DNA from: Candidatus Altimarinota bacterium
GTDB taxonomy: Bacteria > Patescibacteriota > Gracilibacteria > CAIRYL01 > GCA-016699755
Reading direction: 5' to 3'
Length of the DNA: 64,000 nt
Assembly: GCA_963664295.1 (NCBI GenBank)
Contig: OY760935.1
Coordinates: forward strand, 1,024,001-1,088,000
In this document: positions 10,803 through 57,610 of the stretch, piece after piece
How the letters are laid out: the number at the start of each line of letters is the position of its first letter
How positions within the stretch are numbered: the first letter of the stretch is position 1
Translations under genes and position numbers: made by a program
Notes under the pieces: generated by a model
What the model was told of the DNA's origin: nothing
Seen by the model: the letters and a program-made list of their open reading frames with translations, nothing else
The model's database searches: none

Positions 10803-10880
10803 GGCGACTGTAGCTCAGTTGGTTAGAGCGCCGGATTGTGGCTCCGGAGGTCGTGGGTTCGAACCCCATCAGTCGCCCCA
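10803..10880 (+). tRNA. tRNA-His(GTG)
   Basis: G-1, acceptor GCGACTG/CAGTCGC, anticodon arm CCGGA-TTGTGGC-TCCGG, GGTTCGAA T-loop, encoded CCA. Confidence 0.97.
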
Positions 10881-11273
10881 TGAATATCTTTAAACATGTG
10901 CCACAATCAAGATTGCGTCTTCGCGGAGCTAGTGGTTATCTACCCCCATCAGTCGCCCCATGAATATCTTTAAACATGTGCCACAATCAAGATTGCGTCT
11001 TCGCGGAGCTAGTGGTTATCTACCCCCATCAGTCGCCCCATGAATATCTTTAAACATGTGCCACAATCAAGATTGCGTCTTCGCGGAGCTAGTGGTTATC
11101 TACCCCCATCAGTCGCCCCATGAATATCTTTAAACATGTGCCACAATCAAGATTGCGTCTTCGCGGAGCTAGTGGTTATCTACCCCCATCAGTCGCCCCA
11201 TGAATATCTTTAAACATGTGCCACAATCAAGATTGCGTCTTCGCGGAGCTAGTGGTTATCTACCCCCATCAGT
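10864..11273 (+). repeat. Tandem array of identical 80-bp units (5 copies, last truncated), each ending in the 3' 17 nt of tRNA-His
   Basis: AGTCGCCCCA recurs at 10871, 10951, 11031, 11111, 11191; array ends at CAGT 11273. Confidence 0.97.
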
Positions 11274-11899: not shown

Positions 11900-12006
11900 T
11901 GTCATTCTGAACTTGATTCAGAATCTTTTGGTGACATTATTGTCAGCAATTTATTTTATAGCTTAAATAATGTCCAAGGAGATTGCGGGTCAAGCCCGCA
12001 ATGACA
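11900..12006. repeat. Inverted REP-like palindrome doublet (GTCAT...ATGAC class)
   Basis: TGTCATTCTGAA-CTTGA-TTCAGAATC ... GATTGCGGG-TCAAG-CCCGCAATGACA; complementary loops CTTGA/TCAAG and terminal TGTCATT/AATGACA. Confidence 0.75.
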
Positions 12007-43757: not shown

Positions 43758-44146
43758 AGAGCGGGATGCTTATTTTTTCGGAGCTTTGCTCCTCAAAAAC
43801 AAGGCCTTCTGCGCTCGCTCGGAATTTTGCACAAGCGCAAATTCTCTCGCTCGCTTGAGTGTCGAACCCGAGGCTTCTTATCAAGCCACTTCTTTGCCAT
43901 TATTAAAAATTTTGCCCCCATCAGGGCAAACTTTTTAATGGCGGAGAGAGCGGGATGCTTATTTTTTCGGAGCTTTGCTCCTCAAAAACAAGGCCTTCTG
44001 CGCTCGCTCGGAATTTTGCACAAGCGCAAATTCTCTCGCTCGCTTGAGTGTCGAACCCGAGGCTTCGTATCAAGCCACTTCTTTGCCATTATTAAAAATT
44101 TTGCCCCCATCAGGGCAAACTTTTTAATGGCGGAGAGAGCGGGATT
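43758..44146 (-). repeat. Two 189-bp RtT-like units downstream of tRNA-Ser, each carrying a split copy of the tRNA T-arm/3' end
   Basis: TGGCGGAGAGAGCGGGAT at 43939 and 44128; partial end at 43758; units nearly identical. Confidence 0.92.
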
Positions 44147-44220
44147 CGAACCCGCGGATCCGGTATAACCGAATCAACACATTAGCAGTGTGCCGCTTTC
44201 GACCACTCAGCCATCTCTCC
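44128..44220 (-). tRNA. tRNA-Ser(GCT)
   Basis: Reverse complement GGAGAGATGGCTGAGTGG...GCACA-CTGCTAA-TGTGT, long variable arm, GGTTCGAATCC, CCA. Confidence 0.97.
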
Positions 44221-44248
44221 GTAATATTATGTTGTTAATGTTTCATCT

Positions 44249-44383
44249 GCACACTGCTTGTTGCGTGTGCCCCTATCTAGATACACTCAGCCATCTCTCC
44301 GTACTTTGTAAAAATATTAATGTTCTGTTCGGCACACTGCTTGTTGCGTGTGCCCCTATCTAGATACACTCAGCCATCTCTCC
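44249..44383 (-). repeat. Two identical 52-bp repeats upstream of tRNA-Ser containing the tRNA 5' 17 nt, separated by divergent 28-31 bp spacers
   Basis: GCACACTGCTTGTTGCGTGTGCCCCTATCTAGATACACTCAGCCATCTCTCC at 44249-44300 and 44332-44383. Confidence 0.92.
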
Positions 44384-44493
44384 ACATTTTTAACGAGCAG
44401 AGATATTTTGCCGAAATTTTTATTCACAATCAAGCCTGATTTGCTATATTCGCTGATCCATGAGAAAATCAAGGCAGAAATTTTGCAAAAAAC

Positions 44494-52998: not shown

Positions 52999-55900
52999 AT
53001 GGAAACTCTTAAAAGATTCCTTGCGAGTTTCTCAGCTATTGCACTTCTACTTTCAGTAGCAGTACTTCCAGCTTCGGCTGCGACGTTTTCTGATATTGAA
53101 GGTCACTGGAGTGAAGAATTCGTTGAGACACTTGTGGACGAAGGTTTGGTTTCAACAGACCATGAAAACTATCGTCCAGATGATTATCTTAACCGTGCAG
53201 AGTTAGCCAAGCTAGTAGTTGAAGCAAATGACGGCATCATTCCTGGTGTTACAGAAGCTCCAACTTTCTCAGACGTGGCAAAAGATGCATGGTACTACGA
53301 TTATGTTGAAACAGCATATGCTCTTGGCATTGTTGGTGGTTACGGTGACGGGACTTTTGGTCCACAAGACAACGTAACACGTGAACAAGCTGTTAAAATG
53401 ATCGTGGAAGGTCTTTCAGTTCCTACTGATTTAGACCCAGCAGAACAATTCCCTGATGTTTCATCAAGCGATTGGTCTGTTGACTACATTACAACAGCTG
53501 TTAATCAATGTATAGTTGGTGGTTATGCTAATGGTAATTTTGGTCCACAAGATTTAGTTACTCGTGGTCAAGTTGCAAAAATGTTAGCAAAAGCTATGGA
53601 CTACGGTTGTGATGCAGACGACGCTGGTGATGACGCTGGTGACGACGACGACGCTGGTGATGACGCTGGTGACGACGACGATGCTGATGTAACTCCTGTT
53701 AGCGAAGGTACAGTTGAGGTTAGCCTTTCTGCTGATAATCCAGCAGGTCAAACTGTTCCAAACAATGGTACAAATGTTCCTTACCTTGTACTAGACTTTA
53801 CAGCTGGTAATGGTGAAGACGTTGAAGTTACAAACTTGACTATTTCTATTGCTGGTCTTGGTAACGAGAACAACTATAATGAGGTTAAAGTTTTTGATGG
53901 TTTTGACCAACTTGGTTCTGGTAGAAGCTTCTCAAGTGCTACTAATCAAGCTGCTTTAAACCTAACAACTGATCCAATTAAAGTTGAATCTGGTACTACA
54001 AAAACAATTGTAGTTGCTGCCGACATGGCTGCTGCTACAGTGGCTGGTACTGAAAACTATTTCTCAGTTGACTCAGTTGAAAGTGTTATGGCTTTTGGTG
54101 CTGAAACAGGTGGCGAAGTTGAAGTAGCCGGTGATTTCCCACTAAGAGGTAACATTATGACAATTGGTAGCGTTCCGGTTGGTGCTCTTGACTTCACAGA
54201 AAAGACAACAAGCGATACTAATGCTGATATTGGTGAAGAACAAGTGCAGGTTTCACGCTTCGAAATTGCAGCTGACGGTGCTGAAGATATATTAGTTAAA
54301 GCTATTACTTTTAAACAAGTTGGAACTGCTGATACTGATGAGATTGCTAATGTTTCTCTTTGGTATGGTGATACTCAACTTGGTGAAACAGCTGAAACAG
54401 TTGGCGCTGGCGATAAAGTGACAATCGACCTTACAGGTATGGCTGATGGCGGTTGGATTCTTGAAGACGGCACAGCAAGAACTCTTTGGGTAAAATGTGA
54501 CATCATTAAAGGTGTTGGTAAAAATATCACTTTTGAAATTGATGAGCCATCAGAAGATGTTATTGCTGAAGGCTTAACTTACGGCTTTAACGTTGGTATG
54601 GGTGATTGGTGTAAAGGTGCAGGTGGCACTACATCTGCTGGTGCTGGTTGTGCTGGTGTTAATGCTACTGCTGTTGATATTAATGGTGGTACACTTAACT
54701 TCGCATTTACATCAACTGCTCGTGATGTTGCTCCTGATACAGGTGATATAGAATTTGGTGTTCTTACAATTGAAAACGCAGGTGAACCTGTGACAATTAA
54801 AACACTTGATCTTATTCTTGATCCAACTGCTGGTGTTGGTACAGCTAATAACAACAAAATTACAGATGTAAAACTTGTTGACGCTGATACAGGACAAACA
54901 GTTTCTGGTCCAGAAGATCCAGCAGCTTCTGCTATTGCTGCAGCTACTACATTCGGTGATGATTTCTTCATTGATAGTGGTGAATCTTTAACTCTTCAAT
55001 TGTTAGCTGATGTTGAAAACACAGCTGCAACTGGTGAAAAATACAGCTTTGCTCTTGATATGAGCACTATTGAATACAAAGGTGAAACATCTGGTGATGA
55101 CTTTACTTGTCTTGCTGGTGGTGATGACGACTGTAAACCAACAGCTGATCCAGACACAAAAGATTACACAATTGCTCAGCCTACTGTAACTTTCAGTCAA
55201 AAAACAATTGCTGGTCAGATTTATGTATCTAAAGCTGAACAAATTGTTCTTTGGGAAGGTACAGCAAAAGCTAATGATGCTGAAGATGTAAAAATTACAG
55301 AACTTGTGTTCACAGAAACAACAGGTTGTTCTGGTGCTGCTTGTAATGGTAATGGTCATACAGACAACATTGAAAACCTTGCTATCTACACAAAGAAAGG
55401 TAGTTCAACTACTCTTCAAGAAAGTGGTGTAAGCATGGGAGCTTTGACTGGTCCTAATACTACTCCTACTAACACTACATCAACCGTTACATTTACAGAG
55501 CTTGATGAAGATGGATCAAGTGGTATTGCTCTTTCAGCTGGTGAAGAAGTTACAATTATCTTGAAAGGTAATGTTGCTTCAACAATAGTTCACCAAGATA
55601 GTGGTACTGGTACTCCAACTGCAACATTTAGTATCAACCCAGCTGGTGGTGATGCTTCAGCAGAAAACCTAGAAGGTACTGCTGCTACAGTTGTTGGTGG
55701 TTTACTAACTGCAACAGCTCAAACTCTTGCAAACTCAGGTTCTCTAACAGTTGAACTAAACACAGATACTCCAGATGCTCAACTTCTTGTTGCTGGCACA
55801 GAAAATGTAGAAATTGCTACATTTGACTTTGATGCTGACGATGAAGATGCTGACATCGAAGATCTTACTGTTGAATTCACACCAGCCGGTGCTGCAAACC

Positions 55901-57424: not shown

Positions 57425-57434
57425 TTTAAAAACA

Positions 57435-57459
57435 GTTGTCACAAAGTGACAATTTTTTT
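57435..57459 (+). terminator. Terminator-like hairpin after tRNA-Gln
   Basis: TTGTCAC-AAA-GTGACAA-TTTTTTT. Confidence 0.7.
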
Positions 57460-57466
57460 AAATTAT

Positions 57467-57610
57467 TGTTTAGGTAGGACCGAGAACCTGGTTCGACAGC
57501 TAGGAGCCCGAGTGCAAGTGTATGCTTGCATTAAGCTTGCCGAGGGCGACGACGATGCCTTATTTTGCGAGGTGAAACCGAGCAAAATGAGCATCCTACC
57601 CGGGCAGCCA
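57467..57610 (+). repeat. RtT-like element ending in a duplicate of the tRNA-Gln 3' 18 nt
   Basis: ATCCTACCCGGGCAGCCA at 57407 and 57593 (period 186); GGTTCGA at 57490 followed by a 96-nt structured insert. Confidence 0.88.

Follow-up and report, generated by a model that had tools for sequence, protein, structure and literature searches.

The tRNA-Ser(GCT) gene in this 64,000-nt stretch of a Candidatus Altimarinota genome (hereafter the window) is preceded by two tandem units. In each, a partial copy of the 5′ half of the tRNA folds back onto an inverted stretch of that half. This inverted piece matches specifically the tRNA beside it, and modules that do not derive from a tRNA are shared by different tRNA genes. 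Judged from their sequences, such fold-back 5′ units are the mirror image of the repeat units found 3′ of tRNA genes, here and in E. coli. We tentatively favour the reading that they are gene-less, selfish DNA modules, tailored to their tRNA, that were quite possibly made by fold-back (template-switch) copying and then likely multiplied through a 17-bp direct repeat.

The tRNA gene itself is intact, encodes its CCA and occupies 44128–44220 on the minus strand (ARAGORN; Rfam RF00005, 62.4 bits), with the anticodon at 44184–44186. Abutting its 5′ end are an inner unit of 80 bp (44221–44300) and an outer unit of 83 bp (44301–44383), both on the minus strand. Read in the direction of the tRNA, each runs from tRNA bases 1–17 through TATCTAGATA, tRNA bases 27–33, a short loop and an inverted copy of bases 37–28 (inner) or 37–26 (outer) to a spacer. 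In the inner unit, the direct copy of bases 1–17 (44284–44300, minus strand) breaks off in the D-loop, and the remainder of the D-arm is replaced by TATCTAGATA, a 10-bp perfect palindrome (44274–44283, no strand assigned). The same-sense copy of bases 27–33 (44265–44271, minus strand) forms the 5′ arm of the hairpin of the inner unit, the inverted copy of bases 28–37 (44249–44258, plus strand) supplies its 3′ arm and part of its loop, and a 28-bp A/T-rich spacer follows (44221–44248, minus strand). The outer unit, with its core at 44332–44383, carries a 12-nt inverted copy of bases 26–37, CGGCACACTGCT (44330–44341, plus strand), and a 31-bp A/T-rich spacer (44301–44331, minus strand). The initial annotation had seen in these 12 nt an inversion that stops at the anticodon, and they are indeed the exact reverse complement of 44184–44195 (tRNA bases 26–37), ending at the last anticodon base. 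It had also placed correctly the 17-nt copies of the tRNA 5′ end, the 80- and 83-bp periods and the 52-bp cores (44249–44300 and 44332–44383), which are identical.

Two copies of the 25-nt hairpin lie in the window, where 0.00 would be expected, and the score of 24 for the inverted match to the tRNA interior was reached in 0.27% of 1500 random 260-nt windows of the genome. The palindrome TATCTAGATA has one further genomic copy, distant from tRNAs. The loop sequence CAACA is only suggestive as an inverted copy of tRNA bases 42–46, and it is absent from the strain variant described below. The two spacers differ, as had been noted, but they are not wholly unrelated, since the 8-mer TTAATGTT is common to both; both also terminate in TAC beside a tRNA start, and their global likeness is borderline (281 of 5000 shuffles were equally good). 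The inner spacer has an 18-nt exact match inside a 1,400-aa ORF (G000:C1:357782–357799, where G000 is this genome), which 182 of 20,000 shuffles equalled and which is probably due to chance. The initial annotation had raised the possibility of a generic REP hairpin scattered over many non-tRNA sites; the GGCACAC...GTGTGCC hairpin is confined to one site in the 1.2-Mb genome, and so is not such a repeat. We rejected REP/RAYT elements because the full hairpin has one site rather than many dispersed copies; GGGGCACAC occurs four times in the genome, twice at the Ser locus. The motif TATCTA, suggested as a marker of tRNA-linked units, proved not to be one, with 28 occurrences near tRNA genes against 23 expected.

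The same gene has units on its other side. The first, of 189 bp (43939–44127, minus strand), is rtT/TLR-like and comprises a hairpin, a decayed inverted 3′ half, a T-loop insert and the last 18 tRNA bases; the second (43758–43938, minus strand) is 99% identical to it, with the terminal tRNA copy reduced to 10 nt. The T-loop insert of these two units is also present at Gly-GCC, Ser-TGA, Ser-GGA, Arg-GCG and Gln-CTG, giving seven copies, 94–100% identical over 68–114 nt, at six tRNA loci, and it was found in none of 40 relatives. Several 3′ units of the genome have a common layout, in which a hairpin is followed by an inverted T-arm region (about bases 44–60), a loop, a sense T-arm bearing the T-loop insert, and the tRNA end; a tRNA-Gln(TTG) 3′ unit (window 57425–57610) has an equal layout with a different T-loop insert. 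An 80-bp × 5.1 array 3′ of tRNA-His (10864–11273, plus strand), with an inverted copy of bases 31–39, falls in the same broad family. The mirror relation that had been drawn between the Ser 5′ units and the 3′ arrays is real. The module order said to be common to the Ser units and the His array stands as a description, with a possible likeness in sequence (a local match of 14 of 17). The Rfam RtT model (RF00391) gave no match at the gathering score or at E values up to 10. When aligned directly, an E. coli rtT unit (NC_000913.3) and the 3′ unit of this locus scored 41, against 32 for the best of 500 shuffles, and the E. coli unit itself contains an inverted tRNA arm that matches at 16 of 19 bases, as well as a T-loop insert. 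Elsewhere in the window, a 30-bp × 2.3 tandem repeat lies at 53617–53686.

Units that copy tRNA ends are frequent across this genome, a single 1.215-Mb contig of 33.5% G+C rated 100% complete. ARAGORN called 41 genes, from which we removed the tmRNA and three intron-type false calls. Twenty of the remaining 37 tRNA genes carry such units, 8 with an upstream copy of the 5′ end and 15 with a downstream copy of the 3′ end. Of 74 flanks, 9 contain an inverted copy of their cognate tRNA that scores at least 22 (0.25 expected). Among the 13 flanks with a score of at least 18, the best fit is to their own tRNA, rather than to one for a different amino acid, in 11. Sequence outside the tRNA-derived parts also recurs. 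The 5′ units of Ser-GCT and Met carry CCGAACAGAA at equal offset, although its CCG part is itself tRNA-complementary and 82 of 3000 shuffles reached the global likeness of the two units. The 5′ units of tRNA-Met(CAT) (G000:C1:419414) also have in common with the outer Ser spacer the AACAGAA beside the hairpin, and spacers of other 5′ arrays in the genome are identical or near-identical. We also observed a trailer with GTCGCCCC that begins about 19–24 nt past Leu-GAG, Met, Thr-GGT and the tmRNA and also follows the Ser-GGA and Lys-CTT units (G000:C1:97573, 844379, 1133494, 748024, 606336 and 135582), with 153-bp tandem copies at Leu-GAG.

Which tRNA region is inverted differs from unit to unit. 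Among the 5′ units of this genome the inverted span is 26–37 at Ser-GCT and 26/28–35 at Met, the only two to cover the whole anticodon; at Ser-GGA it is 24–35, with the first anticodon base only, and at Ser-TGA it is 20–30, with none. The same holds in other bacteria. We searched for a tRNA-Ser 5′ end repeated at 66–89 bp, a pattern that fixes both period and tRNA type, and recovered 83 loci in 185,579 species genomes, spread over Bacteroidota, Ignavibacteria, Chlorobi, Alpha- and Gammaproteobacteria, Clostridia, Omnitrophota and Patescibacteria, together with 78 in metagenomes; viral contigs gave no matches to this pattern, and a narrower Ser(GCT)-type unit pattern gave none in metagenomes. 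In 141 of the 161 loci the unit lies beside a called tRNA-Ser, and these group into 72 clusters. An inverted copy scoring at least 18 is present in 20 clusters, compared with 2.1 for shuffles and 8.7 for another isoacceptor, and falls mostly within bases 9–34, usually on the D-arm. Three of the 20 overlap the anticodon, two of which are better read as sense copies through stem symmetry, leaving at most one genuine case. Therefore, folding back is general and the 'anti-anticodon' is not. Counted as exact matches of at least 8 bases, an inverted copy is present in 19 of 74 units and covers the anticodon in one, and we rejected anticodon targeting as a rule on these two counts. One metagenome contig (L157) has a 5′ unit with tRNA bases 1–23 and a perfect 21-nt inverted copy of bases 9–29, extending past its own sense prefix.

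Among close relatives the units are patchy. None of seven same-family genomes has a unit at tRNA-Ser(GCT), and across 29 relative loci a 5′ unit was present at 1 of 41 tRNA genes. One same-family genome (G002) has units at none of the 33 tRNA genes examined (30 loci of 41 matches), and another relative (G035) at 9 of 33 (30 loci of 46 matches plus one earlier locus). Like units nonetheless recur among related genomes of Clostridia and Alphaproteobacteria, in clusters of 8 and 12 loci; this recurrence suggests upkeep and counts against a selfish module.

A strain variant illuminates how the hairpin may have arisen. The stretch, whole or in part, is present in five sequencing runs from two studies; X1–X3 may be the source sample, and X4 comes from the other study and has 13 differences in 614 bp of the neighbouring region. 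An 80-nt X4 contig is exact over 44204–44259, then has a different partner arm, and then returns to the palindrome. The inverted arm is kept, and the new partner arm pairs with it perfectly over 9 bp. As the same-sense arm in X4 spans tRNA bases 28–35, the 'anti-anticodon' is for the most part no more than the opposite arm of a copy that folds back on itself. A rewrite of several bases in one arm suggests template switching, a reading that comes from one low-depth contig. According to PMC8794818, this process can create reverse-complement repeats and perfect hairpin arms in one event with no dedicated enzyme. The contig has a depth of 9.7 against 4.7 for the flank and includes the inner spacer, and the outer spacer is not covered, which hints that the X4 strain holds two identical 78-bp units. 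Because the X4 arm fits the T of the inner spacer and the arm in our genome fits the G of the outer spacer, the array in G000 looks recombinant; on the evidence of this one low-depth contig, its inner unit seems to combine a spacer of the inner type with a core of the outer type.

How might such units form? Under the reading we favour, a nick or stalled fork at single-stranded tRNA-gene DNA would first trigger re-synthesis. Second, the new strand would copy the front of the tRNA and then fold back or switch strand in the D- or anticodon arm, which would produce the inverted piece, before rejoining upstream and leaving the tRNA intact. Third, the 17-bp repeat would permit loop-out, held by pairing of the inverted piece with the real arm, and thereby expansion and homogenisation of the cores. 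Finally, modules could move between tRNA genes through conserved loop sequences, and the copying process would re-tailor them at each new site. Where the inverted piece overlaps the anticodon, this would then be a mere mark of how far the copied arm had extended. The patchy load (20/37 genes here, 9/33 in G035, 0/33 in G002 and absence at Ser(GCT) in seven relatives) counts in favour of a selfish module, as does the variability of the inverted region across tRNAs and clusters. The excess of inverted copies that match their own tRNA, the modules shared among tRNA genes and the rewritten arm in X4 speak for it too. The retention in X4 of an arm that pairs with the tRNA also fits selection on pairing in RNA.

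That last point belongs to an alternative we consider unlikely, in which the units act as a functional RNA leader: the false 5′ end would take the acceptor stem and the inverted arm would trap the anticodon arm, gating RNase P, with copy number tuning the effect. A predicted promoter-like site, TTGATT-17-CAAAAT (44405–44433, minus strand), lies 21 nt upstream of the outer unit, so that the units, which lie between it and the tRNA, would sit in the precursor transcript. More generally, of the 29 tRNA genes that lack 5′ units, 13 have a TTG-type motif with 17-bp spacing no more than 60 nt away. None of the 8 genes with such units has the motif that close to the tRNA itself, but in 3 of them it precedes the outermost unit by 10–21 nt. 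The earlier interpretation is thus supported in part, in that the units are downstream of a predicted promoter, but not in its view of the inverted piece as anticodon-directed, given how the inverted region varies; a codon-like leader reading the anticodon is unlikely. The inconsistency of the inverted region and the absence of the unit from all seven same-family genomes also tell against a leader function more broadly.

Folding predictions give a divided answer. For one unit plus tRNA, the predicted fold is the swap that had been proposed, with the false 5′ end in the acceptor stem and the inverted arm paired to the real anticodon arm; the 12-bp duplex is computed at −22.8 kcal/mol, against −13.1 kcal/mol for the outer unit's own hairpin. 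The energy gap for Ser-GCT (6.7 kcal/mol), however, is inside the range of 100 shuffled leaders (mean 4.7, maximum 7.7), and when both units and the flank are folded the native acceptor stem is predicted to be regained with a probability of 0.97. Because tRNA-Ser(GCT) already misfolds in silico when no leader is attached, folding carries no information in its case. At Ser-GGA, the predicted probability of the native anticodon stem drops from 1.0 to 0.0 with the unit, in line with an RNA role, and PMC8144298 reports that three E. coli TLRs are transcribed and processed, which would also suit one.

Mismatches and hairpin loops bear on whether the units act as DNA or as RNA. Mismatches in the inverted copies show no sense-strand G.U bias (5 versus 4 of 26), against expectation for an RNA leader. 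Loops of the c(GNA)g type are exceptionally stable in DNA and are a DNA feature. Among triloop hairpins in 72 representatives, 11 of 31 are c(GNA)g, on both strands (7 and 4), with 0.2 expected; RNA-type tetraloops number 4 of 31, all on the transcribed strand. The 3′ units of this genome contain 17 triloops, all but one of the types c(GNA)g or c(AAA)g/c(TTT)g. No hairpin of its 5′ units passes the loop test, so this test is silent on the Ser unit. On balance the evidence leans toward DNA, and the DNA-level origin advanced in the initial annotation is the likelier process for the 5′ units.

A DNA-level origin need not imply a selfish module. The units could be passive replication accidents, in which the host polymerase switches templates at tRNA hairpins, each unit arises independently without family or helper, and slippage makes the copies. 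Template switching yields reverse-complement repeats and repairs stems without a dedicated enzyme (PMC8794818), there is no mobile-element enzyme nearby, and the series of tRNA 1–33, inverted 37–26 and flank is possible from one switch event. We nonetheless doubt this account, which does not explain why modules are common to different tRNA genes, why 20 of 37 genes are affected here and none of 33 in a same-family genome, or why the 3′ unit resembles E. coli rtT to a degree matched by none of 500 shuffles. Simple slippage, as had been argued before, does not account for the 5′ units, and neither does a plain att scar.

A more ambitious proposal, which is probably not correct, unites the 5′ fold-back units with the 3′ rtT/TLR units as mirror-image orientations of a single mobile element, widespread, without a protein of its own and confined to tRNA genes. 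Base-pairing of its inverted arm to a single-stranded target would let it find a tRNA gene and be re-tailored to it, and a small, tRNA-nested GIY-YIG nuclease would move it in trans. If true, it would explain E. coli repeats described in 1978 and add a new base-pairing-guided DNA insertion system. Four GIY-YIG matches are present in this genome, none near the Ser locus. Two are tandem copies of an 82-aa gene in 321-bp units built on a pseudo-tRNA-Pro. These units, two of them upstream of tRNA-Pro(TGG) with one more decayed fragment further up (G000:C1:482635–483400; L114), consist of tRNA bases 1–29, a TCCGCC..GGCGGA hairpin that replaces the anticodon arm, tRNA bases 43–56 and the 82-aa GIY-YIG gene; a related hairpin is present in the tRNA-Arg(GCG) 3′ unit. 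The protein matches the UPF0213 structures 1zg2 and 1ywl in sequence, NCBIfam has no family for either small GIY-YIG protein, and 15 of the 28 fetched loci with relatives of the 82-aa protein have a tRNA no more than 400 bp away. This GIY-YIG gene lies within 500–600 bp of none of 41 fold-back loci, compared with 16 of 120 other loci; the fold-back class is thus tied to no enzyme, which counts against a selfish module. G002 has a tRNA-proximal match yet no units. We rejected presence of the nuclease as a predictor of units, as GIY-YIG matches occur in 27 of 41 genomes and do not discriminate. The tRNA-nested nuclease is thus a weak candidate for a helper. Another gene, of 95 aa (G000:C1:622554–622841; L116:1444–1731), is flanked by GTCATTGCCCG-type hairpins and resembles, by eye, an Ssn/SRM pair; a hairpin resembling the GTCATTGCCCG type follows tRNA-Ile at about window 11903–11927.

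Other enzymes and families were sought in this genome. Y1 (HUH) transposase PF01797 had no matches, nor were Y1/RAYT or reverse transcriptase genes found. The tyrosine recombinase PF00589 had one, at C1:1158017, about 24 kb from the nearest tRNA gene. These results, too, weigh against a selfish module. No integrase gene lies beside the displaced tRNA fragment, as a tRNA-targeting integrative element would have. Rfam matched no family other than tRNA; there was no T-box match, and the gene downstream is the tRNA itself. In att sites, a short insert is usually bracketed by repeats of a terminal tRNA fragment, and that geometry, together with breakpoints in loops, is what the units have in common with attachment-site scars left by an integrative element that entered at the D-loop and then decayed and was amplified. 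We find this very unlikely: the sole tyrosine recombinase match lies away from tRNA genes, most of the insert derives from the tRNA and it carries a tRNA-specific inverted copy, a number of fold-back loci, judged by eye, follow a promoter-like site immediately and show no island in the 230–260 bp displayed, and the 5′ pattern had no matches in viral contigs. A CRISPR-like memory of tRNA-derived repeats and acquired spacers, which the identical cores, differing 28/31-bp spacers and 18-nt host-gene match of the inner spacer might evoke, can be dismissed almost entirely, given A/T-rich spacers that have an 8-mer in common and both end in TAC, an X4 strain that appears to carry the inner spacer twice (depth 9.7 versus 4.7), and the identical or near-identical spacers of other 5′ arrays in the genome.

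Taken together, the 5′ and 3′ forms at 20 of 37 tRNA genes, their mirror design, their common modules and the strain variant make the origin of the TLR family testable. Should an enzyme move the units by target pairing, this would be a guided-insertion system of a new sort; should the units instead act in RNA, tRNA maturation would have a new layer of control.

How do the units compare with known systems? REP/BIME sequences with RAYT are extragenic hairpins, and att duplications of tRNA-targeting islands are repeated tRNA ends. The Ser unit differs from both, since its hairpin has no second site in the genome, which also lacks a Y1 transposase match and an integrase next to a tRNA gene. Template-switch mutation (PMC8794818) is a general process that does not itself predict modules common to several tRNA genes. 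SegB of T-even phages (PMC13096335) is likewise a tRNA-gene-associated GIY-YIG nuclease, one that drives tandem amplification of tRNA loci, but it is a phage enzyme, the amplified genes are whole and functional, and the portion of the article seen describes no fold-back half-tRNA units. Ssn nucleases and their NTS/SRM hairpin repeats (PMC11893778) also pair a small GIY-YIG nuclease with single-stranded DNA hairpin repeats; SRMs, however, are dispersed and form one sequence family, whereas the Ser unit is at one site and tailored to its tRNA, and the word 'tRNA' does not occur in the main text of that article. An ssnA-like gene with a flanking SRM hairpin would mark such a system; no GIY-YIG match lies near the Ser locus, and a simplified SRM pattern had no matches in the genome, not even at the likely ssnA locus, so that it says little about the Ser locus.

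The closest likeness is to the TLRs, such as the 178-bp rtT/rttR units of tyrT-tyrV, which are also tandem non-coding units that abut a tRNA gene and repeat 17–19 terminal bases. According to PMC8144298, TLRs are defined by an 18–19-bp copy of the tRNA 3′ end and have had no known function since 1978, a starvation phenotype once linked to rtT having been retracted. TLRs occur as one to five tandem non-coding units abutting a tRNA inside an operon, as the two Ser units do with their predicted promoter, and the neighbouring 189-bp unit has the 3′-end repeat (18 bp). The Ser 5′ units instead repeat the 5′ 17 bases, lie upstream in the leader, break in the D-loop and invert the anticodon arm. We found no description of 5′ fold-back units in the open-access literature. 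As they fall outside both the 3′ definition and the Rfam model, we do not class them as TLRs, although they are built like one in mirror image: the Ser feature is a 5′ variant of tRNA-linked repeats.
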